DNA from: a virus
Reading direction: 5' to 3' (one strand)
Length of the DNA: 64,000 nucleotides
Virus record (IMG/VR): IMGVR_UViG_3300023281_001229
Location: 1-64,000 of that record
Made by a program: the position numbers and the translations under genes. How positions within the stretch are numbered: position 1 is the stretch's first letter; each line of letters begins with the position of its first letter. Below the pieces are notes generated by a model. It searched no databases. It was given only the letters and a program-made list of their open reading frames with translations, and was not told the DNA's origin. Shown one piece after another: positions 3,282-53,268 of this stretch.

Positions 3282-3424
3282 AAAACGTGAAAATCTAATG
3301 TAAAAATTCCTAAAAAAATTCTGTATGTAGATATAGGCTCATTATCTGATGGGCCTATATATTCCCAACCTAATGCAAATCTGTCATGAGGCCATGTTGT
3401 AATTAATTCTAATTGCCAATTCAT
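3272..3424 (-). CDS. small hypothetical protein, 50 aa (MNWQLELITTWPHDRFALGWEYIGPSDNEPISTYRIFLGIFTLDFHVFHR); not in ORF track
   Basis: ATG 3 nt after the stop of the upstream giant gene, A-rich leader, open for 50 codons to TAA at 3274-3272; fills the gap between the two gene blocks. Confidence 0.65.
   Translation of the reverse strand: MNWQLELITTWPHDRFALGWEYIGPSDNEPISTYRIFLGIFTLDFHVFHR
3331..3360. terminator. hairpin near the convergence of the two transcription blocks (possible bidirectional terminator)
   Basis: ATATAGGCTCAT-N6-ATGGGCCTATAT inverted repeat with one G-U pair; weak U tails; lies inside the 50-aa ORF. Confidence 0.4.
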
Positions 3425-3427
3425 TTT

Positions 3428-6400
3428 TTAATATTTTTCCAAAAACGCTTTGGCATCTTCTTCTGTTAGACCATATGTATCCTTTATTTCTTCTGGTGAT
3501 GATTGAACTAAACGATCAACATTAGGTAAGTCAGGAATTTGTTTTATTCCCCAATCAAAGATCCCTTCTCTAAAATATCTTTTTTCTCTTTTAATAACAT
3601 CTTGAGGATATAATAAATCTCCTTTAACTCCAACCAATCTACCAAAAATATTCCAAATCTTATATCTATCTTCTTCTTGCCAAACATATGGGCCTGGAGC
3701 TTTTTTAACAATTCCATCTTCATCGTTAGTAGTTATATTTCTAACCTCATCTATTAAAGCAAAAATCTCTTTAACCGCACCTCCATCTGCTAAAGGAGAT
3801 TGTAGAGTAGCTATAGAACCAGCAGTAAAGAAAGCTTGTTCTGGATTAAATGTTCTTTCTTCATTTTCAACTCTTAAAATTATTCTAAGAGCTTGTAGTT
3901 TAAAATAATTTTCCCAACTAAAAGCAGCTCCATTATTTACTGTATACTGCTTTGAAACAAAAGGATTATCTTCACCCAAAGCACTTGTAGATGCTTTTAA
4001 TACACTATTCATATTATAAAAAGAATCTTCATCAGGATTCCAAGCAATACTAAAATCCTCATCATCACTATCCTGAAAGTAAATCATCATTTGTAATTGA
4101 CGTAGTAAATATTGAACTAATACTGTAGCCAATACATTTAAAAAACCTTTTCTAGTTTGCCACGACATTTTTTTAGGATTATAAGTACCATTCCACAATT
4201 CATTAATACCTGTAAATAAAGACAGGTAAGTACCAATTTCTGCTTGCTTAGATGCTAAATTAAGTCTGCGATTTCCCCATTTACCTTTTTTTGTTCTTAT
4301 TTGATATTTATCTAAAGCCATCCCTGGAAAAAACTTTACTAAAAATAAAACAAATTTACCTAAAACTGTACGATAAGCTTCCGGTTCAGTGTACTCTGAA
4401 GCAACACCAATATTTTTTTGTAAAAAAGTTTGATGAGCATTTGTTATATCTGTTAATTTACTACCTAATTTAATTTTACCTTTCTCATCATAACTTATAG
4501 ATAACTCAGCAGGAACACCTTCCTTTGTATAAATTTTACCATCTCTTAACTCTACAGCATCAGCCAAAGAAACACTTCTACCATCTAATTCAAAACGAGC
4601 ATGTTCAAGCATAGCTAAAAATTGATGAACAACAGTTGAATCATTTAAATAACGTCTATCAGCATAAAAGAAAGAACCTTCTGCTACAGATGTACCAACT
4701 GTTCTACCTGCTCTACCACCTATTTCTTTTTTAAGTCCTGACGGCAATGCTCCAGCAACATCTAATAATTGTAATACAGCACTAGGTACTTCATTTGAAT
4801 ATTGTTTAGCAATCATTTCTTTAATCACCATTAAACTTTTTGCTCTGGTAACAGCTAAATCTTTTGTGTTATACCATCTACCTTCAGTAGATTTTTTCCA
4901 AGTCATTAATTTACCACCAAAATAATTAGTCAAAGATTTAACAGGATCTAAAGCAAAAGACATAAATGCCATTTTTTGCGCTGCTATTCCAATTAGTTTA
5001 GATACTCTTAACTCAACCTTACCTAAACCTTCGTCTTGTTGATCAGAAAAAGTTTTTATACTTTGACCTTTTAAATGTTTACTAATTAATGATTGAACTT
5101 GCTTTGCTCTTTTTGAAGCCTTTGATTTTCTTTCTGTTAATAAAGATTGATTTTTTGCAATTTTTTTAACTTCTAATTCAGCTAAAATATTACCTTCTTC
5201 AGTTGTTGACATTACCTCCAAAGTATTTTTTAATAAATTACTTACAGAATTAACATCGCGCATTGCTTTAAACTGCTCTACAGAATAAGCGTGATCCATT
5301 ACAGATTCAATTATATTAGTACTAACATCTAAAAGAGGTAATTTAAAACTACCTGATATAGGCCTAGAGAATGAGTTGTAAATAGATTTATCTGCTGTAG
5401 ATCCTGTATAAAATCCTATTTCATAATCATCCACTGCTTGATACCAAGTATCTCGTAATCTTAATTTTTTTCTGTTCCACCAATTTCTATCGTAAACTTC
5501 TAAAGCTCCTTTTCTATATCTTGGATAACTCAAAAATAATCTTTGAGAATTGTCTAATAATTTTTGATTATTTAAATGAGCTTTTTTTACATGATCCAAT
5601 AAATTCCATTTAGCCCGATCTTCATTAAACATTGCTTTATAAGAAGCATCAATGTACTTATTAGTTTTTGCAAAGTTAGGTTGATTAGGATTGTAATCTT
5701 TAGGGAGCCACTTTCCTCTATTATCTCTATTAGCTAATATTAAATTACCACTTTCATCTACATAATCTTCAAGAATTTTTGGTGTTTGATATTGCTCTTT
5801 TACTAATCGTCTTTGATAAGCTCTTGTAGGAATTCTTGGTACTCCATCAACTTCAATAAACCCTCTTTCACTAAATTGCTTAGGCATTCCTACTGCTGCT
5901 TTAGCTTCGTACTCACTAATATCACTTGGATTGCTATATGACCAAACTGGAGTAGATCTATAAATTGTTTCTGTTGATGCATAACGTCCTGTTGTATCAT
6001 ACTCGTCAATCTCTTCAGTATAATGATTTCTATCAAACCATTCTGCAAATTCAGGATTAGCTTCTTTTAAACGCTCTATTAATTTTATATTTTTGGTAGT
6101 ATCAAAAAGTTCATTAGCAATAGGCATATCCCCATCTAAAATATCTACAGCTCTTTGCGAATCAGCAAATATTTTTTTACTTTCCGGATTAGATGTTACA
6201 AATTTAGTAAAAGTTTCAATGTAAGTTTGTGTTAAACCAGAACTAGTCATTTTAGATAAATATTCATTTACTTTTCTTAAAGTAAGAACATCAGTTTTAG
6301 TTATACCAAATCTTAATAAAGTTGCTTCAGCTACATCCCAAAACCTTTGATGAAAAATTCGATCTTCATTTGATAAATATTTACCTTGATTATTCATATA

Positions 6401-9400
6401 GAAATTATCAATATTTCTATATCGGCTTAAATCCGCTTTAGTTACACCACTAGCTAAAAGCCATTTATCTTTCATATCTGCAATCTCTTGCATTATTTTT
6501 TGAATTTCTTTTTGGGCTTTAGCGTTTATTTTATTTCCATCATACTGATTAAAATCATCACGAGTACCTTTTATAATAGCAAAAACTTTTTCATATAAAG
6601 GACCTACATCTAAATCTTCATTATTTGCTGCTTGTAATTCAGCTAATATTTCACTACGCTTTTCAATTAATTGTGTTCTAACATCGTAATAACTTTGCTT
6701 TACTGAAACTGTAGTATTTAACAATAACCATTCTTTAACTTTTTCATCATAAGCATCAGTATTTTCTTTAAGACCAGCATTTTTAAGTCCAAGTTTAAAT
6801 AAATCAAACGTGTCATTAAACAAACCTTCTTTCTCTTCCCATTCGTAAAATTCTTGAATTTCATTCCTGTATTCAATTAACCTTTCAGCTATAGCTAAAG
6901 CTTTACCTGTTTTAGTCTTACCATTTTCATCATAAATATTAGATAGATTTGCATACTCAGTCCATAATAAATCTAACGCTGCTGATTTTTGTCTTAAATC
7001 TCCTGCTAATGTTATATTATCTTCTACTTGACGCATCCGTCTAAAAATATCATTTTGAGCAGCTCTAGCTTCTGTTCCTAACTCATCATATAAATATTTT
7101 TTTTGAACTTCATAATAGCGAGGATCATAATCCCGATTCATATAATCAGTTAAAAATTCTTCTAGTTCTTTTTGTGCATCGTTATAAGCTTTTTCTGTTT
7201 CCTCAGTTTGTCTAAAATTAAAATCTTTTTTAGCTTCTAAAACCGCTTGTGTTAAAGTATTTAAATCAAACTCATAATCTTTAAAATTGCTTTTAAATCT
7301 ATATTCTAAATATTCAATTACTTTGCCATCCTCATCTAATTCAAAAGATTTGTTAATAGTACTAAGATCTTTACCCATAGCCCCTTCACTAGCAAATCTT
7401 GATTTTACATCTCCATAACCAGCGTCTTTCATTAATTTATCTAAACCATTATACAATTCAGATCTTCTTGCATTCGCATTACCATCTATTGTATTAAAAG
7501 TTTTTTGTAGATAAGTTGCAAATCCACCTACTATTAAATCTTGACTATTTAAATAAGACTCCATTAAACCATTTAAAACACCAGCATCGGGTAATAGTCC
7601 AGCAGCATAAGCTTTTAATTGATCTTTACTGATATCATGTCCATCATAAGACTTTAATCTTAATTGAGACAATTCTTCAGTTTCTTTCCTAGAAATTGTT
7701 GATTTAGAAATAGATTCAAGTTCAAGTAACCTAAACTTCTCCTCTACAGTAATGCCGTAATATTCTAAATGTAATTTATTATACATTTTTAAATTATTAG
7801 AATCTTTAGCCGATTGCATCTGATCTAAAAAATCTTGTTTAATAGGCTCCATTTGCTCAGTTAAAGTATCATAAAGTACATCTATAACTTTATCAGAAGA
7901 TAACCTATTTGCTATTCGCTGAGCTTTATATAATTTTTCTTCCAACTCATTTAATGCACTGTTCCATTGAGAAGAGTTTAACAAAGAACCTTTTTTCCAA
8001 GTTTCTATTTGTTGTTTCCAAACTTCAACAAATTGCATTATTGCAAAAACTTGATCAAACTCATCTGTATCAAAATTTTCAATCTTTTCTAACTCTTCTA
8101 ATTTACTAATGTATTTATCTGCAACTTGTTGTGTTATAAAAATAGAATCAGAAAATGCTTTTATTCTTTGTACAAACTCTAAAGCATCTTTTTCTAATCT
8201 AGTATCGCCTTCTACTTTAAGTTTATCCAAAGGCATAACTAATTGTCTATTGCCAATAGTAACAATATTTTGCATTAAACCTTCTACCTTTTGAAGTAAA
8301 CCTTCTCGGTTAGTATCAGCTAAATCTTTTTCTATTTTTTTAAAAATATCATTTTCTAATTGAAACCTAGATAACTGGTTAGCCGTTATTTGATAAAACT
8401 GGTTCATCATAACTTGAGTTTTTTCAGAAGCATTTTTCTGTAACTCTTCTTGCATTTTTGTATAATCTGTTTCAAACATTGTAAACAGATTTTTTTCTAA
8501 AAACTCTTGATTTAAAACAAACTCTTTACCATAATTAATCATCTCTACAAATTGAGATAAAGTAGTCTTGTCATTTAATTTAGAAATATTTATTTTTTTA
8601 CCAAACTGCCCTCTTAAAAATTGCTTTATAGCAAAGAAGATCTTTTGTATCCAATTTTTAACTTTAGGTTCTTCTGTAATATTTGTATCACCATTGATTG
8701 CTTCTAAAGCCTGAACAATTGCCTCTTCCATATACTCAGCAGTTCCTGGCGTATAATAACTGTCTTGATTTAAATTGGTAATTATTGTTTGTCCAATCTC
8801 AGTTTTAACTAACTCTTCAAAAAGACTATTGAATAATTTAGGATTATCTTGAGATAAAGATTTAATAACAGGATGAGCAAACTCATGAAAAACACTACTT
8901 GCGCTTAAAGAACCTTTTGCTAAATATACCTTACCTCCTCTATAAAAGTTTTTTCTAAACGGCTCATTGGGAAATAACGCTGCCATATCTTCATCACTAA
9001 TGATTTCATAAGGTATGTTTAATTTTTTGGAAAGAGCTTCCGCTAAATTTAAAGCAACCGTTTGATTATCTTGCTCAACAATTGTATTAAAATTATCTTT
9101 TACAAACTTTAAATAATCTTCCGGTGTTTCTAAAGAAGGCTGTTTTCCAAAGTCTACCATCATATCTGCCATAGTTTCAAAACTCTCTTCAATCCGGGCA
9201 TTAATTTTTTCTTGAATAACAGATGATGGACGAACAATTTTATTGTTTTCAAAATAGTCACGAAATGCTTCCTGCTCTCCTATAGCATTAGCTACTTGAT
9301 TAAACTTTTCTAACTGTAGGGAATCAGTAGGTTTTCCATTCTTTTTAATTAGTTCTAGTAAAACATAATTGTCAATTTCAACAACATCTGTTTTTTTATA

Positions 9401-9601
9401 ATTCCAATTATCAGACTCTACAGAAAAATCTAATTTAGATTTAGAAAGTTCTGTTTCTTTCAAAACCATTTCTTCATTATTAAAATTTTCATTTAATAAA
9501 TCACCATATTTTTCATTGTATATGATCTCAGCCAATAAAGGATTAGGTTCAGTTTCTAATATTTTTTTAAACTCAGGACTATTTGGATTTACACACGCCA
9601 T
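3428..9601 (-). CDS. giant ejected virion protein of the RNAP cluster with an N-terminal zincin-like (HEFAH) domain
   Basis: ~2057 aa; likely start MACVNPN at 9601 (TAATG overlap with the RNAP stop); FHEFAHP...EEAIV motif; follows the RNAP gene as in crAss-like phages. Confidence 0.75.
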   Translation of the reverse strand: MACVNPNSPEFKKILETEPNPLLAEIIYNEKYGDLLNENFNNEEMVLKETELSKSKLDFSVESDNWNYKKTDVVEIDNYVLLELIKKNGKPTDSLQLEKFNQVANAIGEQEAFRDYFENNKIVRPSSVIQEKINARIEESFETMADMMVDFGKQPSLETPEDYLKFVKDNFNTIVEQDNQTVALNLAEALSKKLNIPYEIISDEDMAALFPNEPFRKNFYRGGKVYLAKGSLSASSVFHEFAHPVIKSLSQDNPKLFNSLFEELVKTEIGQTIITNLNQDSYYTPGTAEYMEEAIVQALEAINGDTNITEEPKVKNWIQKIFFAIKQFLRGQFGKKINISKLNDKTTLSQFVEMINYGKEFVLNQEFLEKNLFTMFETDYTKMQEELQKNASEKTQVMMNQFYQITANQLSRFQLENDIFKKIEKDLADTNREGLLQKVEGLMQNIVTIGNRQLVMPLDKLKVEGDTRLEKDALEFVQRIKAFSDSIFITQQVADKYISKLEELEKIENFDTDEFDQVFAIMQFVEVWKQQIETWKKGSLLNSSQWNSALNELEEKLYKAQRIANRLSSDKVIDVLYDTLTEQMEPIKQDFLDQMQSAKDSNNLKMYNKLHLEYYGITVEEKFRLLELESISKSTISRKETEELSQLRLKSYDGHDISKDQLKAYAAGLLPDAGVLNGLMESYLNSQDLIVGGFATYLQKTFNTIDGNANARRSELYNGLDKLMKDAGYGDVKSRFASEGAMGKDLSTINKSFELDEDGKVIEYLEYRFKSNFKDYEFDLNTLTQAVLEAKKDFNFRQTEETEKAYNDAQKELEEFLTDYMNRDYDPRYYEVQKKYLYDELGTEARAAQNDIFRRMRQVEDNITLAGDLRQKSAALDLLWTEYANLSNIYDENGKTKTGKALAIAERLIEYRNEIQEFYEWEEKEGLFNDTFDLFKLGLKNAGLKENTDAYDEKVKEWLLLNTTVSVKQSYYDVRTQLIEKRSEILAELQAANNEDLDVGPLYEKVFAIIKGTRDDFNQYDGNKINAKAQKEIQKIMQEIADMKDKWLLASGVTKADLSRYRNIDNFYMNNQGKYLSNEDRIFHQRFWDVAEATLLRFGITKTDVLTLRKVNEYLSKMTSSGLTQTYIETFTKFVTSNPESKKIFADSQRAVDILDGDMPIANELFDTTKNIKLIERLKEANPEFAEWFDRNHYTEEIDEYDTTGRYASTETIYRSTPVWSYSNPSDISEYEAKAAVGMPKQFSERGFIEVDGVPRIPTRAYQRRLVKEQYQTPKILEDYVDESGNLILANRDNRGKWLPKDYNPNQPNFAKTNKYIDASYKAMFNEDRAKWNLLDHVKKAHLNNQKLLDNSQRLFLSYPRYRKGALEVYDRNWWNRKKLRLRDTWYQAVDDYEIGFYTGSTADKSIYNSFSRPISGSFKLPLLDVSTNIIESVMDHAYSVEQFKAMRDVNSVSNLLKNTLEVMSTTEEGNILAELEVKKIAKNQSLLTERKSKASKRAKQVQSLISKHLKGQSIKTFSDQQDEGLGKVELRVSKLIGIAAQKMAFMSFALDPVKSLTNYFGGKLMTWKKSTEGRWYNTKDLAVTRAKSLMVIKEMIAKQYSNEVPSAVLQLLDVAGALPSGLKKEIGGRAGRTVGTSVAEGSFFYADRRYLNDSTVVHQFLAMLEHARFELDGRSVSLADAVELRDGKIYTKEGVPAELSISYDEKGKIKLGSKLTDITNAHQTFLQKNIGVASEYTEPEAYRTVLGKFVLFLVKFFPGMALDKYQIRTKKGKWGNRRLNLASKQAEIGTYLSLFTGINELWNGTYNPKKMSWQTRKGFLNVLATVLVQYLLRQLQMMIYFQDSDDEDFSIAWNPDEDSFYNMNSVLKASTSALGEDNPFVSKQYTVNNGAAFSWENYFKLQALRIILRVENEERTFNPEQAFFTAGSIATLQSPLADGGAVKEIFALIDEVRNITTNDEDGIVKKAPGPYVWQEEDRYKIWNIFGRLVGVKGDLLYPQDVIKREKRYFREGIFDWGIKQIPDLPNVDRLVQSSPEEIKDTYGLTEEDAKAFLEKY

Positions 9602-12600
9602 TAGTAACATTTTTTTAAGTGTTCAACAATTTGATCATTAGATTTTTTTGGATTTGCTAATGCTTCCTCAATATACTTTAAAGCATTAACAACTTTAAAT
9701 TTCTTAGCAAAGTTATCTAAAATACTTTGTTTTTTAGATTCATCAAGCAAACCAAATTTAAAAAGATCGGCATACTCTTTTACAGAAGCTGCGGAACCCT
9801 CAACAATATTCACATCTGTTTTTTGATTAATATAATAATCTAAAACAGTAGCGTGAGAAGGCATCCCAATATCTTTATAATATTCTATTTTCATACCTTT
9901 TAGTTCGCCAGATTCAAAAGCATCTAGTAATGCTTTTCTATAAGGCTGCTCTAATTCAGTAAACATAGTACCTTCTAACCATCCAATAAATTCTTTTGTT
10001 GCCTGTCCTACAGGTTTACCTTCTGCAGAAATAGGATTACCAATAGAATTATATTCATTAAAAGAACCTAATAAATTAGCTTTAGATGCACGGTACGCTT
10101 TTATAACAGACTTATCTTTCATATTATTCCAGATGTTCTCTACAATCTCTACATTTTCAGAAGCCGTTTCAAAACCTAACTTATCATATATATCTTCTAT
10201 AGTTTCTTTTTTTACTTCAACTACAGGAGATTGCTTTTGAGCTTGATTCCTTAAATTCATAAATACTTGCTCTACTAAAGAATCAAATAAAGAAGTTGAA
10301 CTTTTACCTAGAGTTAATAGACCAGCAGAAGAATTTTTTAACTCATACCGTAGTTTGGCTTCATAACTTATTTTTCCTTTTGTTAACAAACTTTCGCTTC
10401 TTATAGCATCTACTATCATCGTGTAAACCACTTCGTATCCTGTTTTCTCTTTTAAACCTGAAGATAACTTTTCGAATTTTTTTGGTTGTTTCCTAGCCAA
10501 ACCTCTATCTACACCATTAGTTAAAACAACTTCATATACTTTATCTAATAGTTCATTATATACAGAATTATTAGTTAAATACATTGTTTGCTCTGTAGGC
10601 TTATAAAAATCATGAACCACATCTTTCAAATTTTCGCTTTTTACCATTTCAAAATAAACTCCAGCTTTTGTATATTGCCTAACCGCAACGTAGCCGTTAT
10701 TTTCTAAATATTGTTTAGCTAAAGCATCTATTCCAGAGTAGTTACCAACTATAAAAGTTTCAACTCCCGCCTTCATAGCTTTATCTATCATTTTTTGATG
10801 ATATGAATTAAAAGTGTTTTTAATTTTTTCAAGGTATATTTTAGCACCATTTGTTTCATTATTGTAAGCACGCTCAACCATTCCTGATCCAAATATCCAA
10901 ACTACATCTTTACTTGTAAACTGTTTTTTCCTAGAACTTTTATCAGCCAATACATTCCTTTTTCCAAACTCGTCTTGTTTTAAAACAGATACATATGCTT
11001 CAGAAGTTGATTCATAAACTGGATTTAAAGCTTTTGTAGACGCTCCTATGGCTTTACTAGAACGATTAGCCATAGCTTCATCCTTAACTGTGTTTAAACC
11101 TTTTAAAACAGAAGATCTTTCAATAGATAAACCTTGTCCAATTTCTTTACGTTGAGCAATTAAATTTGGTAGTTCACCAGTATTATCAATTCCAATTATT
11201 TTTAAAGCATTATCGAATTCTTCTTGAGTAAGAAGGTCAGGTTGTATCAATTCAGGAATTAACATTTTTTCATTAACAATAATTAAATTTGCTCCTTTAC
11301 TTACTTTCATTACTTCCTCAACACTAAGCCTTCCACTTATCATAGTATCAAGTATTATGTCAGCATTAATTAAATAACCTCCTTCAGTTCTCTGAATTGA
11401 CCATGCCTCTTCATAAGACTTTGCTACAGTAATTAAATTTTTACCTCTTTTTAGTGTTACTTTTTTTGCTTTAGAAAACTGTAAATTGTTTATAGTATAG
11501 TTATGACCTCTTACTTTTTGCGCTTTTTTACTTAAAGCGTCATTAAATAATTGAGCAAATTGATCTATAATTTGACCATCAATTTCTTCCCTAGAAACAT
11601 TATTTTTTATTAATGTATTTACATCATCTAAAACACCATTAATATATTTTATTCCTATAGACTGATCAATAATTTTTTCTAGCTTAGTTTGATCTGTTAA
11701 TTTAGTCAATGCATATTTTGATTTTACACTTAAACCTGTTTGCATTATTGCAATGTGATCAAACTTTCCAAAAAATTCTTTAACTTCAGGATGAGGACTG
11801 TTTTTTAAGTTCGCAATATTTTCTCTATAAACTTGAGCCATTTGAGCATCTTGAATTTGAGAAAGATACATATTCATTTTTTTAAGAGGTTCGTTGTAAT
11901 CATATTTAATATCTCTAAAAAAAGCATAATTGTCAAGCTCGGTTTTATATTTAGAATGGATATTTTTTAAAATATTAGCAACACCTGAACCAAAATTAAA
12001 CATTGCCTCAGGATTACTTGTATTATAAAGAGCCGCTTTAGTTAAAATCATTGTTTTCCCTGTAGTTTCACCTTTATCTAAATAACTATTGCTTGTATTA
12101 TCAAATATTCCAAAAGTTTCTAAAAATTCTTCTTTTGTCATATCTTTAGAAACTTCTTGTAAATTAGACATCTCTATATAAAATTTAACAAAATCTTTAG
12201 GTTTGCTTATGTTAAAAAATTGCATTGCCGGAGCATTTTCTAAAGAACCAAATAAATTAACTACAGCTTGCGTAGACCATGTAACAACTCCGGTTTCTTT
12301 ATTAATTTCTATTTCTTTTAAGCCACCTTCTTCCTTTAAAGTGTAAGTCACACCTGGTAAAGATGTTTTATTATCTACAATGCTTGTACCTGAGGTTGTA
12401 TAAGAATCACCAGCATAAACGGCATTTTGATATAAAAACCAAATAAAGTCATCTTTAAATTGAGTTAATATTTTAGCCTTATCCATTCCTTTAGGAACGG
12501 TTATTCCTAATGATTTTAATATTAGTGCTGGATTATTTTTAACACCAAAATATTTAGAAAATAAATCAACAATAAATTTATCATTATCAAATTTGCCAAT

Positions 12601-15600
12601 AGGTGAATTTTTAACTCCTTCAAAAAATGAATTAGGTATAATTTTTTTATTAGCAGGTTTAGATTTAAATTCTTTTATTTTTTCTTGTCTATTTTGAGCT
12701 TCAGAAATAGAACTTATTTTTTGTGTATCAAACTTTTGTAATTGAGTAAATGTGTTTAAGTCTTCTGCCATTTCTTTAGCAGCTAAAAACGTAGCTAATA
12801 ATTCGATATCTCTAAAATCTATTTCTCTGTTTTTAAGACTTATTCTGTTTTCTAATTCTCCTTCATTAAATTCTTTAGATTTATTTACAATTAAATTTTG
12901 TGAATATTTTGAATAGCCCGCATTTTCTAATAAAGGCAAGTATTTTTTCATTATTTCTGTTAAAGCTTGTTTAGCAGGCTTACTGTATTCCCTGGCTTCT
13001 TCATCAACATATTCTGCTATAAGCGCGTCTAATTCTTCTACCTGATTTTCTTGAATAATGTCACCAAAAATACCACTGTACTTAGCCAAATTAGAATTAT
13101 ATTCCATTACTAAAGGGTTAGTCATCATAGAAATAATATTTCTTGGGCTGACACCCGCCATCGTTAAAAATAATATAGTAGGTGTATTTTCTTTATCACC
13201 TTGCATTTCCGCAATCCATGGTGAATTCGCAGCATCTACATATCCGTTTATTAATTGAGAAAGCAAATCAGAAATTAATTTACCATCAACATTTTCAACC
13301 ATCCCTAAAGACAACGCATTTTCTGAAAGAACTTCATTGCTTTCTAGTTTTAAAGTTTTACTTTGATATGACTCTACAATTTTTAAAGACTTAGACCAAA
13401 TTGCTGGATTAGTTCGAGAATTAGATTCAACAGTTAAAATCTTTAAAGCATCAACAAATTGTTTTTGATCTTTTGCTGAAGTAGATTGAAGAGTTGCTTG
13501 AAAAGTTGTAAACACTGCATAAAATGTACTAGCAACAGCTGCTATACCCAAAGAGTCTAAAGCAACAGACATTTCTTGATGCTTTAATAAATTAAATCTA
13601 TAGTCAAATATTTTAGTATTACCCCCTTGAGTTTTATCAAATGTTCTTTGAATTTTTTTACCAGCCTCTCTGGCCATATCTTCCCAGGCTTCAGTAGTAT
13701 TAGGTGATACTAATCTTGACATGTTACTTGGATCTAAAACTCTTTCTTGTATTAGATCAATTAATCTATTTTCTAAACCTTTAGTAGTTCTACCTTGTAA
13801 TTTTGCTTCTAGTTGAAACAATTTATTTTCAACTTCTTTTATTTTAAACTCAACTTCTTTTATAGGATCATTGTACCTTTTAAACTCTGCATCAACAGCC
13901 GCTCTTCGCTCTTCTTTACCAGAAATTTTAGTTTTGAAAAAATCACTAAGTACTTTTTCTAATTCCATTTCAGCTTCTGCTATATTTGCTTGGCCCTTTT
14001 CAATTTCTTCATTTAACAGTTGATGAAATTCTATTTTTTTACTAATACTATATTTGCCACTAGAATATACTTCTGTCTTTTGTTTATAAAGAACTTGTAT
14101 ACCATTTTGGTTTTTCTTTATTCTATCTATGTATTCTTGTGCTGCTTCATTAACATTACCTTTTTCTTTGAGATATTCAATGTATGAGTTTAAAAGCTCT
14201 TTTCTGTCTTCTTTAAGAACTTCTCTTTCTTCTTCTAGTTGTTCAATTGCTGTAAATATTACAACAGGATCTTCTTTTTGATTAGGAATATATTTAACCT
14301 CTTTAACTATACCGTATTTAGAAATAAAGTTTTTCATTAATGTAAACATAGCATCTACATCATAATCAGAACCTGTATTTACAACTACCTCTGCAGGCAT
14401 TATAATTATTGGTCCTGCTGCTTCTGGCAAAAACTCAGCTACTCTTGTAGCAATAAAAGCATTAGATCCTTGAGATGGTATACGCACCCCAGGAATATCA
14501 ATCATTTTACCATATTTTTCTAACCACACAGAATCTTTTATAGCTTTATTTAAGTTTGCTAACGAAGCCACCTCATCATAAATTTTTTCACCGGTTGCTG
14601 TATCTCTTGTAAAAACTTTTATTGGCTTATCATTATATTTTGTATTTAAAAGTTTTTTATATTCACCTTGCAAAGCAATCTTAATTTCCATTTCAGTAAC
14701 AGTATATAAACCAGTTTTTGGATCTTCTATATACTTTCCATTTTCATCTACAGCGAAGTGAAATTTTAAACCACTTGTTCCATATTTTTCGTGATCTTCT
14801 TTTGTACCAGTTTTATAATCATATGATTCCCACATTGCAGAACTAACCTGAGTTAATTTTTCACCATTAGATTTAAGTCGTCTTAATTTTTTATCTACAA
14901 GAGTAGTAAGTAATTCTTCTATTTTTGAACCAATCAACGAAAAAGATAAATCATCAATTAAAGTACCGTCAGGCTTAGAAATATAACTTATTTCTTCAGG
15001 TAATAAATCATTATCTTTTAGTTGTGTTTTAATATATTCAACTAAAGCTTTTGAATCACCCTCATAAACAGTATCGCCATTAGCATTTTTTACTTCTTTC
15101 ATTTGAATGTCTTCCAGTAAACTGCTTCTTAAAACAGCTTCCATTTCATCTAAAGTTTCAGTGAAATCTTGATACCACGCCCATTTTTTTGATTTTTCTC
15201 TTTTCTTTAGATTTGTAAGTTTTTCCCAATTTGATTTACGTTTAGGTGCATTGGGTTGAAAATCAAAAGGTACACCATTATCTAAAATACCATTTAACGC
15301 AATTTTTCTTAATTGAGTTGGTAAAGTAACATAACCTTTAAATCCTTCTTTAATAAATATTTGACTTTTAAGACTGTTTACATCAATTTCATTTATAGTC
15401 CATGGAACCGCTTTAGCTAAAAAATCATCATTTACTAATCTATCCTTTGCACTATAAAAATCATCTTCTATAGGAATAAATTTTTGCTTTTCTTCACTCC
15501 ACTCCACCTTAGTTAATGTAGATAATTTAGATCCAGAATTCATAGTAACATATGCTAATCCTTGCTCCATCATAGATTCATGCAGCTCAACTAACTTAGG

Positions 15601-21276: not shown

Positions 21277-21277
21277 G

Positions 21278-24200
21278 CTATTTACATTTAGTTATTTCTG
21301 TTTTCAGATCTTCTAGTAACTGTTCATCAGATAAAGATTCAGCTTCTTTATTATACTTAGTGAAGTTACTTAAAATTTCAGAATAGGCTTCTTTAATATA
21401 CTGAAATTCGGTGGCATTTGCAACAACGTCAATAACTTGACCATTAAAAATAGTACCTGGTAAAAGTTCTTCAGTCATAGCTGATAATAATTCTTGAGAG
21501 TTTAATGCCATAACATTTCCAACCATACCTGATTGAAATTCTTCTAACAAAACAACTTCTATTTTATTAGATTCTTCTCTATAATCGTTAATAATATATG
21601 CAGTTCCACTAATGTTGACTACAGCTCCTTTAAGATTTCCTGATTCAAATTGTGAATCTATTGATTTTTGAATTGCTGTTTTTTGTTTTGCTGTTGTTAA
21701 CTTATTTAAAGCACTTGTGTAAGTATAAAAAGATTTTATAAAATTTAAATCCGATTGTTTTTCAGTATTAATTAATTTCCAAAGTAATTGTAATTGCTTT
21801 GGAACTGAATCTATTTTTAAAAGCTGTGCAGAAATAGATTCAGTAAATCCATATTCAGAAATATAATCTTCTGATTTTTCTTTAGCAGATAATTCTTCAG
21901 CATACTCCTCATTAAGCATTTCTTCAGCTAATAAATAATCTTGTTCTTTTGACAAAATTTCAGCTTCTATTATTGCTTTACCTTCTTGAGTTGTACTCCA
22001 TTCCACCCATTGCATTAAAGCCGCTTGTTCTTCAGTCATCCCTGATAACTCCTCTTCTCTTTTACTAGCTTCATAACTACTTATATCGTTGTCAATCATT
22101 TCTGCTACAGCATCAGCTAATTGATTTGGAGTAAATATATCGGCTAGTAATGATTCAGCAATACCCATTCCCGGAACATTACTACCCGGATCTAATGCAT
22201 TTCTAACAAACTCATTATCTTGCTCACCAAGACGCTCAGATAAGCCCTCTTCTATTTTTTCGCCTAATTCTGCAGAAGATCTATAGCTCATTTGTTTTTC
22301 AGGATTATTTGAAATCCAAGCCGAATATTGTTCTCTTAGTTTTTCTGTAAGAAAATAAGACGGGTTTAGTTTTTTTAAACCATCAGTATCAAAAAGCAAA
22401 AGTTGGGCCATTATTATAGCAGCTTTTGTTTCCATAGTGAATGCAATATTTTCAATATCTGCATTTTTAATAAGTCTTCTTGATGAGTCTTTAAAAGGCA
22501 TTTCGACATCAGAACCAAATTTTTTCTTTGGTGTAGCTCTTAGTTCATAAAGACTTGTTGAATTTATTAATTGCTTAGAACTTAATTTTTTTAATGTGTA
22601 CGCAATTCCTGATTCATTCAATAATCTATTTACTTTAATTACAACACTAGGATACAACCGTTGATTTTTTTCAAGCTGGGCTATTAACTTTTTAGCATTT
22701 TTTAAAGTTTCTAACTTAGTTTTTCCTATTAAAGTTTCTGGTAATAACTTAGAAATTTGATTAGGCTTAGTTGAAAATCTATAATTTCTCATTATATCCC
22801 TTACTCCTTCATTAAATTGATTTGAATCTAATAAAAATATTTCAGAATGATATTTAAGCATAAACTCCCGCATACCGTTGGGAATGTTTATTATTTTATC
22901 TTTTGTGTTAGCTATTTTCAGCTCATACTTTCCGGATGAACCTAAACGCTTAACATTATCTGCAATTAATTTTTCTTTTTTTAAACGCTCTTCTTTTTGT
23001 ATTTTTTCTTCTGCTTCTCTTTGTATTCTTAACCTTCCTGTAATTACGTTTCTTATATCTAAAAAACTAAACGCAATAATACCTTCTTGATTTTTTATTT
23101 TTTCGGCAAACTTTTTAATTTCTTTGTCAGTTAATAAGTCAGCTCCTGGTAATTGTTTAATTTTTTCTTCAAGAGTTAACTTAGTTTTTTTACCTTTTTT
23201 TCTAAGTTTTTCTAAAGCCATATCCTCTTTACGTTTAGCTTTAGCTCTATCAATCTTTTCTTGATTTAGTTTAATATCTTTTGAACCTTCTTGCTCATCT
23301 TGATCTTTTATTCTATCTGCAGAATATTTAGAGGCAGCTTCTATATATAAAGGATTTCTTTGCATCATTTCCGCAATAGCATCAATATCTTTTTGCTCTA
23401 ATGCAGTGATTGGTTTTCCATATAAATCAGCTATAGTATTTTGAAGTGCTTTAGGAAGTCTTGCAAAAGGTGTAAATGGAGTGATAATCTCATTTTTATT
23501 TCTATCAAATTCAGGAACATAATCTGTATTTTTTTCTAAGACCGGGGCGTTTTTTGTTACTTGTTCTGTTGCTAGTTTTTTTCTTTCTTCAGACAACTCA
23601 AGCACTTTAATTTTCAGCATTGATGTTTTAGTAGACAACCTTCGTTTTTCAATAAAAGTTCCTTTGCCTATTTTTAAATTGTCTTCATTAATTTTTATTT
23701 GAGCTCTTAAATTATCTATTTCATCTTGTATACTTTGAACCGTTCTAACATCACTATCTACCTCACTTTGTTTTAGAACTTCTTCTTCAACTTCTATTTC
23801 TTCTGTTTCAATTCTTGTTTGAATTTCTTCTCTGCCTAAAAACAGTTCTGCTTCTTGAGCCTTTAATAAAGAGTCTAAGCCTATAAATGTTTTACTATTA
23901 TATTTATTCTTTTTTGGATCTTGTCCTTCAAATAATGCTTTAACAAACCATTCTGATCTTTGTCCGCTACCATCTGTTTTTAACCTAGTTCCAAAATAAA
24001 GCAATGGTGTCCATTCTCCAGCAGTATCTGCAGTTGTCCCTGTACCGGTAGATTTATACATTAAAAAACGTTTACCATTGGCAACAACATCAATAATTAA
24101 TCTACCGTCTATTTCTAATCTAAGCGGTCCAAATTCCCAATTCATTTCATCTGATAAAACATCTATTTCATCAAGCTCTTTTCCTAAAGCAACTAGTTCA

Positions 24201-27200
24201 TCAGTAGCTGCGTTTACAGATTCTTCATTTTCAAATTGAATGTCATCATTAATATAATCTTCCATTAACGTAGGTTGATCTCTGGCTTCATTCATTACAA
24301 CAGTATTACCCCCTACATTTTCTTGAACTTCTCTAGTAACCGTTTTTGTTACTTTTATTTTTTCAGTTTTTGGGGCTTTCTTTTTTTCTTCAGTTTCTTC
24401 TAAAATGTAACCTAAATCTATAGCACCCCCTTTAGCACTATATTTAGCTAAATCGGCTATAGTTGTTTTAGTTGGTTTAAATTTGCTTACGTCTTTAGGT
24501 ATTATTTTTAAAAACTTTGCTGTTTCTTTAATAAGCATTTTTGCAAACTCATAGATTCTTTTAAATAATCCGGGTTTTTCTTTTTCACTTATTTGATTAG
24601 CCATAGCTAATTCATAAACTCTACCTACTAACTCATGTTCAAATTGTCTACTTCCGATACTTTCCTCTGTACCATATTCTGCCTCAACATAATCTATTAC
24701 AGATTGATCAGCTTTTGCTTCAGCAACTAAGGCTTTATATAATTCAGGATTTAGTTTTTCTGCATTAATTAAAAAAGGATGTAAAAATATTTCATGGAAC
24801 GGAGTGTTTTCTTTTACACCTTCTGCAACAATATACGCAGTATTTGTTTTTTCATCATAAAAGCCATTAGGTATCCCTGATTCTTTAGAATAAAAAGGAT
24901 TATTAATTTTATCTAAATAACTTTCTGCTTCTTCTTGATCTCTTAATATTTTAACATTAACATTCCATTTTGCACCTAACTCCGCACCTAATATTTTTAA
25001 TTCAGCTTCCTTTTTATCTAAAGCTTCGGTTGCTTCGTCTGTTCTAAGTTTAATATTAATTTCAGAAATGTCATCTATTATTTCTTGATCAACTGCTTTA
25101 GCTGCTATATTAATAACTTTATTAACTAACTTATTTTCAAATTTTTCTTTTACAATAGCTTCGCCCCCTTCTTTGACTGTAGCCCATAAAGTTTTTTTAG
25201 TTGGTTGAATTGCGTCTTCTATTTTACTTAAAAAATATTGAAACCCTGAATCATTTAATGCTTCAGATAAAAATACATTTACCGAATTAAAAACAGGCAT
25301 GTTTTCTACATCTTGCTCAGGATAAGTAGCAGCATAAACTTCTTTTGCTTGACGCATAGCATCTCTAGCTTGCAACCAAAGATCATCATTTTCAACTAAT
25401 CCTTCCGAAATCTTGTTTTGTGTTAAAGCAGTAATTACAAGATTTTCAATAGAGTAAGCAGAATTACTGTAGTCTTCCCCAGCAAATCTTACATCAATAG
25501 TAATTACACCTTGTTCATTAACTTGAATAGGAAGAGTTTGATCTTCAACAAACCTTATAGTACCCTCCGCTTCCATAACTTTTAACATGACTTCCCTATC
25601 TATAGGTGTCATGTATTTATTATCTACATCTAATATTTTATTTATTAATGTTAAACCTTCTTTAGAAGTAATATCAATATTTTTGTCAATTTTAATATTG
25701 TATTGACGTAAAATACCTTTGACTGTACGTTTATCTTGTTTTAGTTTTCTGCCCTGACTTCCTTCTTTAAGTCCACTTTTTACAATATTTTTGCCAGTTA
25801 ATCTTTTTATATACTTATCAATTATTTTCTCAGCTATTCTTGTCTGCTCAGAACTAGCAGCTTCATTATCTTCTAAATTAATAATCTCTTCAGGCATCAC
25901 CCTATTTTGTAAAAGATCATCTAAATATTTCAAATCAAAAAACACACCTGCATCATACAACTCTTTTAACATTTGGTCAGAAGATTGCTTTTTAGAAAAC
26001 TCAATTAAAGCGTTTTTAATATGCTCTTTTTTATTTTCTTCTAATCTACCTAACATTAATTTATGACTAGCCATAAAAGAACTAGATCCACTATTAGTCA
26101 TTAATGTTTCAGCATATTCTGTATAAGCACCTTCTTGTTTTTCTAAAATTATATAATCAAAAATTAAGTCAAATGCTTTTTTGTTAACTTCTGTTTGAGC
26201 TTCTTTACTAGTTAATCTATTTTTACCAAAAGCCTCAACTACCTTTTGATAAACATCAAACATCCCATCATAAATTTCTTCTTCTGATTCAGTAGTACTT
26301 GCTTGATTTAATAATTCTGTAGTTTGAGTTAAAACTAATTTATAATTTTCTAAAGCCTGAAGACGTTGTTCACTAATTTTAGAATCTTGCAATAAAGCCC
26401 CTGTTAAATTTAGGTCTTTATTAGCTTCAACCTCTGCCCTTAAAGTTTGAATTGTTTGATCTAAGCTACCTACTTCCACTAAAGACTCTACAGAAAACTC
26501 AGAAACCAAAGGATTTTGATCTCTAATCACTTCTTTAATTTCTTTTAATCTTTTAGCTCTATCTAAAATTTTAGAATGATTAAATAAAAGCTCATCTTTT
26601 AATGATTCAAACGCAGAATATTCTATAAATTTTTCTAAATAGTTATCAGCTTTAGGATCTAATTCAGAAAGCGTTATATCGTTAATAAAATTTTGTTGGA
26701 TTATTTTGTGTTTTTCAGATAAATTTCTTAATAATTCCGCATTGTCTAATAATTTTTTCCTAGACTCTCCTATGTTTTCTTCAGTTATATCTGTTCTAGC
26801 CATTAATTCGCTAAGCTCAGTTGCACCTAGTTCGGTTCCCATGTAGGTTAAATGATCAGACATTTGTTCAGCTAATCCAGCTTTAATAACTCGCCTTACA
26901 CCATTTGTAAAACTTTCATTTTGAGCATTCTTAAATTCTTTTTTCTGCCCATTTTTAGCAGCTTCTAACATTTCTTCTTGAATCTCAGCTTGTCTGGCAA
27001 TAGGCTTAGACCAAGAATCTATAAAATTTTTATTTTCATTAAAAAACTTAGTCAAAAATTCAGCTTCTTTTTCAAGCCTGTCCATTTCTGCTTTTTGAGT
27101 TTCTGCATATTTTGTTTTATTAGTAGCTTTCTCAAATGTACCTTGAGCAGAAATAAAACCACCTCCGTTAACAAAAGTGTTTATTTGTCCTGTAGCAAAA

Positions 27201-28810
27201 CCTACAGGTGAAGCAAATACTCCCATAAATAAACCAGACATAAAAGTTTCTAATCCTTGATGGCTATTTTGTTTATTTACTGCCTCCATTAAATCATTCT
27301 TCAAATAATGCAGTAACCCTCCTTTAGCTTGAGTTCCTTGCACATTCCTTGAATGATAATTTTTAAATGATTCTGAAAGAATATCTTGCCCAAGTTCTTG
27401 AACACCTTCCATTGAACCACTTAATGTACCTTTTACAGATTTTTTAATTGTACCGCCAATAGTCCAATCTGATACTTTTCCTCGTATATATTCTCCAGCG
27501 CTTTTTTTAATAGCATTAACTGTAACTTTTTTAGTAAGAGGATCTCTTACTGCTTTAAACATGTTATTTGCAGAGTTACCAAACATTCGGCCAGTTCCTT
27601 TCATATGTTTAAACATATTATCAAAGGTCACAGCATTAGTCAAATAAATTAATCCAAAGTTTCCAGCATATACATTTTTATTTACTCGGTTTGCTTCAGC
27701 GTCTAATTTTTCTGTGTAAGACTTATCCATTAAAACACCTACATTTTTTTTTGTAGGATTACCATATTTATCTAAGTTGGTATAATCAAGATAGAAGTCA
27801 TCATAATTCTTTTTTCTAAAGTCAGATTCTGCCATGTTGGCTTCTAATTCGCTTTCACTATGCGCCATGTATATTTTTCGCATATCTCTTACAACAGAAC
27901 CTGCTCCTAATGCAGTAGCTTTTAATCCATTAAAATCTTTAACGCGATCTATATTTCTAATAAAATCCATGCTTTCGCCAATAGGATTTATAGCCTTACC
28001 AAAATTTTTAGCTCCTTTTCCAAAAGCTGCTTTTCTCCTACCCAACCAAGCTGTAACTTTATCTACGTCCATCATTTCTTCGGCAGCATTTATCATATTT
28101 TTACCTTTCCGGCCTTTGCTACCTTTACTAAGAAATTTAAAAGCTTGTGTACCTCCTATTTTACCAGCACCTCCTATTGCACCTAAACCTCCGGTAATAG
28201 CTGTAATGGCTAATTCTTCTGCAGCTATTCCTGCAATAATACCCATAGTGTATCCAGAAGATAACATTGTGTTAGACCAAAATCCAGTTTGTCCTCCTTT
28301 AGAAGAACTGTATTTAGCCATAACATCTTCAAATTCTATATAATTTTCATCATCGTGAAATGCTCCGAGGGCAAAAGTATCTTGAAAACCAATTTTTGTT
28401 AATTCCCACATTCCATCAAGTGCTCTATAAATATCATCTGAAGCCGTAGTGTTGTCATCATATAAAGCATCCATCCCACTTTTATATGTACCATCTGCTT
28501 GTTTAACACTACTTAAAAAAGGATCAAAACCAAGCTTTCCGTAAACTTCACTATCGTAAGTTAGGTACTTATCAACATTATGCTGCTTTGCACTAAAGCT
28601 TACATCAGCTCCCATTAAGAATTGCTGAGTTTGTACTAAATCACGTTGAACAGCTATATCAGACATAATTTGTTGATCCCGCTGTATTCTTAAATCTTGT
28701 TTATTTAATTTAGGAACATCTTCTATTTCTGCAGCAGGATCTATTTCATTAATAGAATTATTGTCATTAAGTAATGCTGACATTTCTGTATTGTCTAGTT
28801 CTTCTGCCAT
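21278..28810 (-). CDS. giant ejected virion protein of the RNAP cluster with N-terminal hydrophobic segments and zincin-like domains
   Basis: 2510 aa; Gly/Ala-rich hydrophobic stretches (GIIAGIAAEELAITAITGGLGAIGG; FMSGLFMGVFASPVGF); HEIFLH motif; immediately upstream of the RNAP gene. Confidence 0.75.
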   Translation of the reverse strand: MAEELDNTEMSALLNDNNSINEIDPAAEIEDVPKLNKQDLRIQRDQQIMSDIAVQRDLVQTQQFLMGADVSFSAKQHNVDKYLTYDSEVYGKLGFDPFLSSVKQADGTYKSGMDALYDDNTTASDDIYRALDGMWELTKIGFQDTFALGAFHDDENYIEFEDVMAKYSSSKGGQTGFWSNTMLSSGYTMGIIAGIAAEELAITAITGGLGAIGGAGKIGGTQAFKFLSKGSKGRKGKNMINAAEEMMDVDKVTAWLGRRKAAFGKGAKNFGKAINPIGESMDFIRNIDRVKDFNGLKATALGAGSVVRDMRKIYMAHSESELEANMAESDFRKKNYDDFYLDYTNLDKYGNPTKKNVGVLMDKSYTEKLDAEANRVNKNVYAGNFGLIYLTNAVTFDNMFKHMKGTGRMFGNSANNMFKAVRDPLTKKVTVNAIKKSAGEYIRGKVSDWTIGGTIKKSVKGTLSGSMEGVQELGQDILSESFKNYHSRNVQGTQAKGGLLHYLKNDLMEAVNKQNSHQGLETFMSGLFMGVFASPVGFATGQINTFVNGGGFISAQGTFEKATNKTKYAETQKAEMDRLEKEAEFLTKFFNENKNFIDSWSKPIARQAEIQEEMLEAAKNGQKKEFKNAQNESFTNGVRRVIKAGLAEQMSDHLTYMGTELGATELSELMARTDITEENIGESRKKLLDNAELLRNLSEKHKIIQQNFINDITLSELDPKADNYLEKFIEYSAFESLKDELLFNHSKILDRAKRLKEIKEVIRDQNPLVSEFSVESLVEVGSLDQTIQTLRAEVEANKDLNLTGALLQDSKISEQRLQALENYKLVLTQTTELLNQASTTESEEEIYDGMFDVYQKVVEAFGKNRLTSKEAQTEVNKKAFDLIFDYIILEKQEGAYTEYAETLMTNSGSSSFMASHKLMLGRLEENKKEHIKNALIEFSKKQSSDQMLKELYDAGVFFDLKYLDDLLQNRVMPEEIINLEDNEAASSEQTRIAEKIIDKYIKRLTGKNIVKSGLKEGSQGRKLKQDKRTVKGILRQYNIKIDKNIDITSKEGLTLINKILDVDNKYMTPIDREVMLKVMEAEGTIRFVEDQTLPIQVNEQGVITIDVRFAGEDYSNSAYSIENLVITALTQNKISEGLVENDDLWLQARDAMRQAKEVYAATYPEQDVENMPVFNSVNVFLSEALNDSGFQYFLSKIEDAIQPTKKTLWATVKEGGEAIVKEKFENKLVNKVINIAAKAVDQEIIDDISEINIKLRTDEATEALDKKEAELKILGAELGAKWNVNVKILRDQEEAESYLDKINNPFYSKESGIPNGFYDEKTNTAYIVAEGVKENTPFHEIFLHPFLINAEKLNPELYKALVAEAKADQSVIDYVEAEYGTEESIGSRQFEHELVGRVYELAMANQISEKEKPGLFKRIYEFAKMLIKETAKFLKIIPKDVSKFKPTKTTIADLAKYSAKGGAIDLGYILEETEEKKKAPKTEKIKVTKTVTREVQENVGGNTVVMNEARDQPTLMEDYINDDIQFENEESVNAATDELVALGKELDEIDVLSDEMNWEFGPLRLEIDGRLIIDVVANGKRFLMYKSTGTGTTADTAGEWTPLLYFGTRLKTDGSGQRSEWFVKALFEGQDPKKNKYNSKTFIGLDSLLKAQEAELFLGREEIQTRIETEEIEVEEEVLKQSEVDSDVRTVQSIQDEIDNLRAQIKINEDNLKIGKGTFIEKRRLSTKTSMLKIKVLELSEERKKLATEQVTKNAPVLEKNTDYVPEFDRNKNEIITPFTPFARLPKALQNTIADLYGKPITALEQKDIDAIAEMMQRNPLYIEAASKYSADRIKDQDEQEGSKDIKLNQEKIDRAKAKRKEDMALEKLRKKGKKTKLTLEEKIKQLPGADLLTDKEIKKFAEKIKNQEGIIAFSFLDIRNVITGRLRIQREAEEKIQKEERLKKEKLIADNVKRLGSSGKYELKIANTKDKIINIPNGMREFMLKYHSEIFLLDSNQFNEGVRDIMRNYRFSTKPNQISKLLPETLIGKTKLETLKNAKKLIAQLEKNQRLYPSVVIKVNRLLNESGIAYTLKKLSSKQLINSTSLYELRATPKKKFGSDVEMPFKDSSRRLIKNADIENIAFTMETKAAIIMAQLLLFDTDGLKKLNPSYFLTEKLREQYSAWISNNPEKQMSYRSSAELGEKIEEGLSERLGEQDNEFVRNALDPGSNVPGMGIAESLLADIFTPNQLADAVAEMIDNDISSYEASKREEELSGMTEEQAALMQWVEWSTTQEGKAIIEAEILSKEQDYLLAEEMLNEEYAEELSAKEKSEDYISEYGFTESISAQLLKIDSVPKQLQLLWKLINTEKQSDLNFIKSFYTYTSALNKLTTAKQKTAIQKSIDSQFESGNLKGAVVNISGTAYIINDYREESNKIEVVLLEEFQSGMVGNVMALNSQELLSAMTEELLPGTIFNGQVIDVVANATEFQYIKEAYSEILSNFTKYNKEAESLSDEQLLEDLKTEITKCK

Positions 28811-31316: not shown

Positions 31317-31333
31317 TTTATTTTATATTTTAA

Positions 31334-33217: not shown

Positions 33218-33240
33218 ATTGTAAATATATTAATTTATAA

Positions 33241-33258
33241 TAACTAAAAAATAGTTAC
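33241..33258. promoter_or_regulatory. palindromic intergenic element TAACTA-AAAAA-TAGTTA-C, copy 1
   Basis: 18-mer identical to 41577-41594; both copies abut a stop codon and lie upstream of the next - strand gene. Confidence 0.55.
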
Positions 33259-35630: not shown

Positions 35631-35634
35631 AATT

Positions 35635-39075: not shown

Positions 39076-39084
39076 GTTTAAAAT

Positions 39085-51272: not shown

Positions 51273-51273
51273 A

Positions 51274-52512: not shown

Positions 52513-52523
52513 TTTTTTTATTT

Positions 52524-53258: not shown

Positions 53259-53268
53259 TTTTTATATT

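Follow-up and report, generated by a model that had tools for sequence, protein, structure and literature searches.

The window examined here covers positions 1 to 64,000 of the IMG/VR virus record IMGVR_UViG_3300023281_001229, a 73,277-base virus fragment rated 61% complete. Three giant open reading frames (ORFs) abut on its minus strand and encode, in gene order, an upstream protein of 2510 amino acids (aa) (21278..28810), a 3891-aa protein with homology to crAss-type RNA polymerases (9601..21276), and a downstream protein of 2057 aa (3428..9601). The upstream protein carries a single cysteine (Cys), the penultimate Cys2509 (...EITKCK; codon 21286-21284), and its N-terminus is free of Cys. 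The polymerase has only Cys4 (MKIC...; codon 21267-21265) and the penultimate Cys3890 (...LKKCY; codon 9609-9607), while the downstream protein has a sole Cys3 (codon 9595-9593) and a Cys-free C-terminus. An earlier note on this DNA had claimed four Cys in the three giants, all at facing termini and none internal or at the outer ends, and the counts confirm this, with 4 Cys in 8,458 residues. The chance that four randomly placed Cys would fall one in each 6-residue facing end is about 6e-12. Elsewhere in the window, 22 other ORFs of at least 150 aa contain 177 Cys in 7,706 aa (2.30%), and 2.7% is expected from base composition alone.

The DNA at the junction of the upstream protein and the polymerase reads ...AAA TGT AAA TAG C ATG AAA ATT TGT..., and that of the polymerase and the downstream protein reads ...AAA TGT TAC TAATG GCG TGT.... 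The longest ORF of the downstream protein (3428-9610) begins MLLMAC; an alternative ATG at 9601-9599, which overlaps the polymerase stop (TAATG), gives the 2057-aa protein that begins MACVNP and carries Cys3. We preferred the latter start because 29 of 32 homologues have Cys3, nearly all of them starting with M-A/S-C, so that the homologues support the start that had been proposed for this protein.

The 3891-aa protein matched crAss RNA polymerase genes in 25 phage records, all of Crassvirales or labelled as crAss (tblastn, best E 2e-9), and the profile of the polymerase family matched PDB entry 6vr4_A, the phi14:2 gp66 polymerase, with an E of 5.8e-20. The Asp triad of its catalytic DxDxD motif (D2304, D2306 and D2308 in GSDYDVDAMF; 14353..14367, minus strand) is invariant in 28 sequences. 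A single-sequence phmmer search with the polymerase against PDB sequences gave no match at E 0.01 or better, and none of the three giant proteins had a Pfam or PHROG match. From its homology, its motif and its genomic position, we identify the 3891-aa protein as a virion RNA polymerase of the crAss type; presence in the virion and transcription of early genes are known only for the phi14:2 and crAss001 enzymes (PMC10172136; bioRxiv 10.1101/2020.03.07.982082). As expected for Crassvirales, the polymerase gene is found at the end of the structural operon, where it follows the tail and cargo genes and neighbours the replication genes. PHROG matches upstream of it include a major head protein (61720-63336), virion structural proteins and a tail fibre protein, and a Dda-like helicase is encoded on the other strand at 29-1342. 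The interval 3281-3428 forms a convergent module boundary, where plus-strand replication-type genes end opposite the final gene of the operon for structural and cargo proteins.

To see how far the terminal Cys are conserved, we used sets of 30 polymerase, 22 upstream and 32 downstream homologues, with identities down to 21-23%, and scored a Cys as terminal within the first or last 10 residues. Polymerase homologues carried an N-terminal Cys (position 4 or 5) in 27/30 cases and a C-terminal Cys in 30/30, with only those two Cys in 21/30. Among the upstream homologues, 20/22 had one Cys only, in the last or the adjoining position, and 0/22 had an N-terminal one. Cys3 was present in 29/32 downstream homologues, in 28 of them as the sole Cys, and a C-terminal Cys in 0/32. 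The two upstream exceptions end early, their alignments to the 2510-aa protein covering residues 1-1867 and 1-2360, and the three downstream exceptions start inside the protein, at residues 37, 209 and 375. The terminal Cys is thus kept in every homologue that is complete at the relevant end, save three fusions. In the alignments, C4 and C3890 of the polymerase (28 sequences), C2509 and K2510 of the upstream protein (27 rows) and C3 of the downstream protein (24 rows) are invariant. Many downstream proteins align to that of the window only from about residue 95, yet each begins with its own Cys. These alignments indicate that the conservation of the terminal Cys is positional and not inherited with the domain.

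The same pattern was found in cultured crassviruses. In phi14:2, the sole Cys of g067 (1797 aa) is its last residue, the polymerase g066 (2180 aa) has Cys3 and Cys2179 only, and g065 (1421 aa) has a sole Cys3. In crAss001, gp47 has a sole Cys2339 of 2341 residues, gp50 has Cys5, the internal Cys1334 and Cys2404 of 2412, and gp49 has a sole Cys5. Both blocks, g067-g066-g065 and gp47-gp50-gp49, resemble that of the window in their homologous polymerase, their three proteins and their terminal four-Cys pattern. They differ from it in that the proteins are shorter (1349-2412 aa) and the gene breaks lie elsewhere relative to the domains; moreover, the crAss001 polymerase gp50 has the extra internal Cys, and the crAss001 genes, unlike those of the window, lie on two strands, gp47 being on the strand opposite to gp50 and gp49. 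The polymerase-block proteins of both phages have been detected in virions (record notes for phi14:2; PMC10172136 for crAss001). Conservation of the terminal Cys, which the earlier note had suggested testing, therefore extends to homologues of about 22% identity and to cultured crassviruses.

A scan of IMG/VR with the polymerase alignment returned 80 loci, or 77 after three duplicates were dropped, in which we considered ORFs of at least 300 aa and counted a junction Cys within 10 residues of the facing end. Among 190 adjacent plus-strand ORF pairs, Cys was present on both facing ends in 137, on neither in 52 and on one side in 1. The 52 pairs without Cys are boundaries among upstream cargo ORFs, or between cargo ORFs and the first chain member. 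The lone one-sided pair (locus L072) involves a frameshifted polymerase gene, whose piece after the upstream protein begins MAKC. At the true outer ends, Cys was found in 0/53 first N-termini and 0/60 last C-termini; five apparent outer-end Cys belong to loci that are cut beside the gene, with the partner Cys in the fragment of the missing neighbour. Chains that were fully contained (n = 38) had three members in 32 cases and four in 6; the chain of L025 has four members and that of L051 at least five, with a Cys pair at every joint. Altogether, the 586,331 aa of the ORFs at these loci include 335 Cys (0.057%), of which 286 are no more than 10 residues from an end.

The details of these junctions bear on whether the Cys codons could be a by-product of signals in the junction DNA or RNA, such as start-stop overlap or translational coupling, or could serve an enzymatic peptide ligation. 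A nucleic acid signal is suggested by the window itself, where an out-of-frame ATG overlaps each of the two C-terminal TGT codons (AAATGT). Against it, the partners lie on opposite strands in crAss001 and in the IAS virus, the spacing between partner genes ranges from -17 to +23 nucleotides (nt), the position of the Cys varies, and TGT (226) and TGC (48) are both used as junction Cys codons. An artefact at the DNA level is ruled out by the opposite-strand partners, the variable spacing and the two codons. On the C-side, 0-4 residues follow the Cys in 133/137 junctions; on the N-side, the Cys is residue 3-5 in 133/137 junctions and ranges overall from residue 3 to 7. It is never residue 1, which makes peptide ligation, named in the earlier note as an alternative, unlikely. 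We consider this whole group of explanations scarcely credible.

Gene splits provided a more direct view of the pattern. In five loci the polymerase and the downstream gene are separated by 500-900 nt, and each of these five gaps encodes a protein of 165-297 aa. Every such protein has two Cys and no more, the first at residue 3-5 and the second in the last or penultimate position. The gap protein of L066 is an end-to-end homologue of the last 180 residues of the unsplit polymerases in L082, L059 and L060, which have the two terminal Cys only and no third. Similarly, L023 has an unsplit downstream protein of 2352 aa, and its residues 3-566 correspond to a separate 574-aa protein of L044 (MNC...NNCFR). 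The L023 protein has Cys at positions 4 and 1647 only, with none at the split position of L044. Two further breaks in polymerase genes carry no Cys pair, namely a 290-nt gap in L003 (cr108_1, 19467-19758) and a frame change in L072 (8103-8858). These look like sequence errors, introns or decay and not like real protein ends. For annotation, a break without a Cys pair would accordingly mark a frameshift or an intron instead of a protein end, as in L072 and cr108_1.

Fusions showed the converse. The polymerase homologues P0030 and P0031 are extended at the N-terminus by about 1,250 residues, which match N-terminal sequence of the upstream family (blastp, E 1e-6 to 3e-9); there is no Cys near the join, and the C-terminal Cys is kept. 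By these matches the two are upstream-plus-polymerase fusions; a hidden Markov model of the upstream family found no match in the fused polymerases, though blastp did, and for P0029 blastp gave one 250-aa match to P0054. At the other junction, the downstream protein is found at the C-terminal end of p-crAssphage gp44 and of the Rudgehvirus polymerase. These polymerase-plus-downstream fusions have neither a C-terminal Cys nor a Cys pair at the join, and they keep the first pair, shared with the protein before them (...SFSCM followed by MSC..., and ...YTCS followed by MAC...). The prediction that gene fusions lose the junction Cys is thus borne out at both junctions.

Splits and fusions also bear on how the Cys would be paired. 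The numbers alone permit disulfides that do not connect facing ends, since the polymerase has two Cys and the first and last proteins one each: an intramolecular Cys4-Cys3890 bond plus a first-to-last bond, or homodimers. However, the upstream-polymerase fusion loses exactly the two Cys of that junction and keeps the C-terminal one, the polymerase-downstream fusion loses the other two and keeps the first pair, and extra splits always bring a facing pair. Moreover, the constant absence of Cys from outer ends is not predicted by a homodimer model, and in cyanophage A4, where such a bond has been solved (PMC12002296), the bonded ends are the facing ends. We therefore regard pairing other than between facing ends as very unlikely.

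In addition to splits and fusions, gene breaks have shifted. The polymerase of the window carries a zincin-like HExxH motif at residues 656-660 (YHEAFH; 19297..19311, minus strand), of which H656, E657 and H660 are invariant. Its homologue sits in the upstream protein elsewhere, at residue 2157 of crAss001 gp47 and residue 1743 of p-crAssphage gp45. Residues 585-748 of the window polymerase match residues 1460-1611 of cr108_1 protein 22606, of which residues 1477-1599 match residues 2100-2218 of crAss001 gp47. YHEAFH thus precedes the C-terminal Cys by 182 residues in crAss001 gp47 and follows Cys4 by 652 residues in the window polymerase. Because its placement differs in this way, the gene break has shifted relative to the domains, and the Cys pair is located at the break.

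The closest parallel with a solved structure comes from cyanophage A4, in which cryo-electron microscopy (cryo-EM) revealed a disulfide between gp27 Cys1715 and gp26 Cys5, the C-terminal helix of gp27 being inserted in a cleft of gp26 and fixed there by the bond (PNAS 2025, PMC12002296). In the A-4L record, Cys1715 and Cys5 are the sole Cys of the 1717-aa and 1114-aa proteins, which are encoded by adjacent genes. A4 therefore resembles the window in having adjacent genes of ejection proteins with a sole Cys near the facing C- and N-terminus. Unlike the window, it has a single link in place of a chain of two to four and does not involve an RNA polymerase, and the paper, in the text available to us, regards the bond as stabilising one structure and not as a general rule (PMC12002296). 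This case also bears on whether the facing Cys might instead bind a shared metal ion, zinc or copper for example, and so form a metal-bridged reversible joint. Paired Cys at facing ends fit any two-thiol joint equally. Nevertheless, each terminus has just one conserved residue, no His, Asp or second Cys recurs in the terminal peptides, two thiols alone would make a weak site, and the sole solved case with this signature, A4, is a disulfide (PMC12002296). A metal bridge is, in our estimate, decidedly unlikely.

Taken together, the results define a sequence rule with three parts. Each real boundary inside the block has one Cys per facing end, the outer ends never have one, and a peptide bond makes both junction Cys dispensable. 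This rule argues for a heterotypic Cys-Cys link between facing ends, because alternative pairings do not predict it. We propose, with a probability of about 0.7, that head-to-tail disulfides between facing ends join the three giant packaged cargo proteins of the polymerase block. In the particle, Cys2509 of the first protein would be bonded to the polymerase Cys4, and at the other end of the polymerase Cys3890 would be bonded to Cys3 of the last protein, producing a single, nearly linear covalent thread of about 8,460 residues. The purge of other Cys matches other ejected phage proteins, and would here also avoid mispaired cross-links. Since each Cys lies within a few residues of a chain end, the joints would leave stubs of only a few residues and, with the proteins partly unfolded, could still fit through a narrow tail channel. 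Non-covalent contacts would be lost on unfolding, while the covalent tether would keep the set together with its order and stoichiometry fixed. The disulfide would in this way be the functional equivalent of the peptide bond in relatives with fused modules, and the reducing cytoplasm may then cut the joints and free the subunits. We infer the bond, its timing, the threading and the release; that a covalently continuous block can function is shown by the relatives with fused genes. The interpretation given in the earlier note is supported in part: its comparative predictions held, and its suggestion that the link might keep the polymerase off until delivery found no support in this analysis.

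Structure predictions were consistent with accessible N-terminal Cys. Residues 1-600 of the polymerase (19477-21276) were modelled by AlphaFold2 as a five-helix bundle followed by an alpha/beta domain, with a mean predicted local distance difference test score (pLDDT) of 83 and a predicted template modelling score (pTM) of 0.63; Cys4 lies in a coil (residues 1-6) that precedes a helix (7-24). In the model of residues 1-620 of the downstream protein (pLDDT 70), residues 1-8 are coil. The N-terminal Cys of both proteins is plausibly exposed in these models, because it is in coil before the first helix. Foldseek searches of the two models against PDB gave no match at E 0.001 or better, and hence no structural link to A4 gp26 or another fold. 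A complex prediction that paired residues 1-320 of the polymerase with the C-terminal 280 residues of the upstream protein, made with separate alignments, scored 0.25 against a mark of 0.32, which has no weight on binding in either direction.

Several observations weigh against the proposed disulfide chain. The bonds would have to form in hosts whose cytoplasm is reducing and many of which are strictly anaerobic, and the model gives no account of when or how. A search of the record for thioredoxin (PF00085) found none, which in a fragment rated 61% complete has no weight on either side. The disulfide has been observed by cryo-EM only in A4, and in crassviruses the bond is so far a prediction. 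The A4 precedent is, moreover, an analogy, in which the window may work alike and kinship with the A4 proteins was not detected: phmmer searches of A4 gp26-gp29 against the crAss proteins examined gave no match at E 1 or better, and profiles A1 and A2 gave no match to A4 proteins at E 10 or better. The junction contexts are similar to one another (KCK/KCY; C-I/V-x-P-N-S), so that cross-pairing or polymer formation is conceivable. In addition, the loci are interrelated, and the 137 junctions represent far fewer independent events, with roughly eight independent splits, fusions or shifts. For this reason plain counts overstate independence, and it is the splits, fusions and shifts that carry the argument.

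A last group of adverse observations consists of Cys without a partner. In p-crAssphage, gp47 (857 aa, L001) has its sole Cys at the penultimate position (...QSCR), and the next protein, gp46, starts MPINF. In Rudgehvirus, the sole Cys of gene49 (757 aa, L002) lies 10 residues from the end, and the next protein has no N-terminal Cys. The gp055/gp056 boundary of the IAS virus has a one-sided Cys in a record that contains ambiguous bases; apart from two unclear boundaries, in records that are imperfect, the IAS virus and cr108_1 conform to the pattern. Such lone near-terminal Cys in other cargo proteins would fit a different picture, in which the terminal Cys remain free thiols that serve, for example, in docking, redox sensing or attachment to another part of the virion, and the proteins associate only non-covalently. 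Free thiols, however, leave unexplained the Cys on both facing ends, the Cys-free outer ends and the dispensability after fusion, and we consider this explanation unlikely.

With the disulfide chain as the favoured reading, we also considered a wider picture, in which the whole block would be a disulfide-stitched thread of more than 8,000 residues that is cut by the reducing host cytoplasm, in effect a redox-cleaved 'polyprotein'. Joints would arise at any break that gains a facing Cys pair, and the principle would have evolved independently in an unrelated cyanophage. We put this forward tentatively, as a serious possibility and not as our expectation. On the last point, A4 and crAss proteins share no detectable sequence similarity, and by this comparison the linking device looks convergent or very old.

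Fused crAss-like phages offer a natural comparison, since p-crAssphage gp44 and the 'polyprotein' of bioRxiv 10.1101/2020.03.07.982082 hold modules as in the window, joined by peptide bonds. For the fused 'polyprotein', proteolytic cleavage into components has been proposed (bioRxiv 10.1101/2020.03.07.982082). In the window, unlike in these relatives, continuity would come from reducible disulfide bonds. For the unfused crAss001 proteins, gp47, gp49 and gp50 have been argued to need partial unfolding for passage through the tail, and disulfides are described in the virion at the tail and the portal vertex (PMC10172136).

The Schitoviridae (N4, DEV) resemble the window in that they store in the capsid, and eject, an RNA polymerase that has flanking domains and measures about 3,500 aa; it has been likened to beads on a string (PMC11445570; PMC13434306). 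Their ejected proteins, including N4 gp50, show near-total Cys suppression, which has been attributed to passage through the periplasm (PMC11445570). This published suppression supports the statement of the earlier note that ejected proteins avoid Cys, and the Cys frequency of the window cargo block is likewise far below that of its own proteome. Unlike the polymerase block of the window, the Schitoviridae polymerase is one polypeptide with zero Cys and hence has no junction Cys. Its fold is also unrelated, being T7-like and not two-barrel, and the relation of the three crass polymerase proteins to the single chain of N4 has been said to need study (PMC13434306). In T7, gp14, gp15 and gp16 are Cys-poor ejected proteins from adjacent genes, as in the window, with 0 Cys in the 747 aa of gp15 and 0 Cys in the 1318 aa of gp16. 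Non-covalent contacts hold the T7 core together. Its proteins showed no terminal Cys pairs on facing ends, only Cys2 of gp14, and the rule is therefore not general to podophage cores.

In the literature searched, we found no description of terminal Cys or disulfide chaining in the crass polymerase block. The word 'cysteine' has 0 occurrences in the available text of PMC10172136 and of the bioRxiv version of the phi14:2 paper, and a search for other reports of a disulfide between ejection proteins yielded only the A4 paper (PMC12002296). The single link was known from A4; the chain proposed here would have several links and include the polymerase, and its signature is conserved across an order and follows a rule for splits and fusions. 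Crassviruses are the most abundant phages of the human gut, and how about a megadalton of protein, including an RNA polymerase, passes their narrow tail is an open question. A reducible end-to-end tether, if true, would explain ordered delivery and fixed stoichiometry, the free splitting and fusing of genes, and the purge of Cys elsewhere in the proteins. The disulfide idea is directly testable in two cultured phages, perhaps in existing data, because Bayfield et al. performed liquid chromatography-tandem mass spectrometry on reduced and non-reduced crAss001 virions (PMC10172136).

Directly upstream of the three giants, five consecutive ORFs of 834, 627, 790, 1146 and 818 aa (28812..41541, minus strand) contain 0 Cys in 4,215 aa, so that these eight consecutive ORFs together hold 4 Cys in 12,673 aa. 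The five had no PHROG match. They are probably further packaged or ejected cargo outside the Cys-linked chain, because of the gene order in crAss001 (gp45, gp46) and phi14:2 and the account of such cargo in PMC10172136. At other loci, upstream cargo proteins often carry one close Cys pair, 2 to 8 residues apart (for example 88/94, 128/133, 390/398 and 369/378), as in L012, L015, L025, L027, L030, L040, L049, L051, L074, L076 and L079. Such a pair is also present in L005 (crAss001 gp45) and L006 (phi14:2 g069), and in none of the five cargo-like ORFs of the window.

The giant proteins showed a few further features. The downstream protein of the window has an HExxH motif of its own at residues 239-243 (8873..8887, minus strand), like phi14:2 g065 (residue 245). 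Some giant polymerase homologues (P0010, P0011, P0013, P0014, P0016, P0017, P0019, P0029 and P0030) carry additional Pfam matches, to PF08719, PF13532 and PF25176; PF08719 is named by one source as a YbiA/DUF1768 family protein. P0010-P0012 have two additional internal Cys near residues 1088 and 1430.

At the opposite extreme to the Cys-free cargo block, the window contains a run of small ORFs of 168-256 aa with 5-7% Cys (51787-56014, minus strand, plus 51274-51780 and 49533-51293). Several of them begin with paired Cys (MSCTSC, MSCKKC, MCKVC) and have CC doublets inside, and the run adjoins a collagen-like tail fibre protein (PHROG, E 4.5e-20). By analogy with crAss001, these Cys-rich small ORFs may encode disulfide-stabilised tail or fibre parts.

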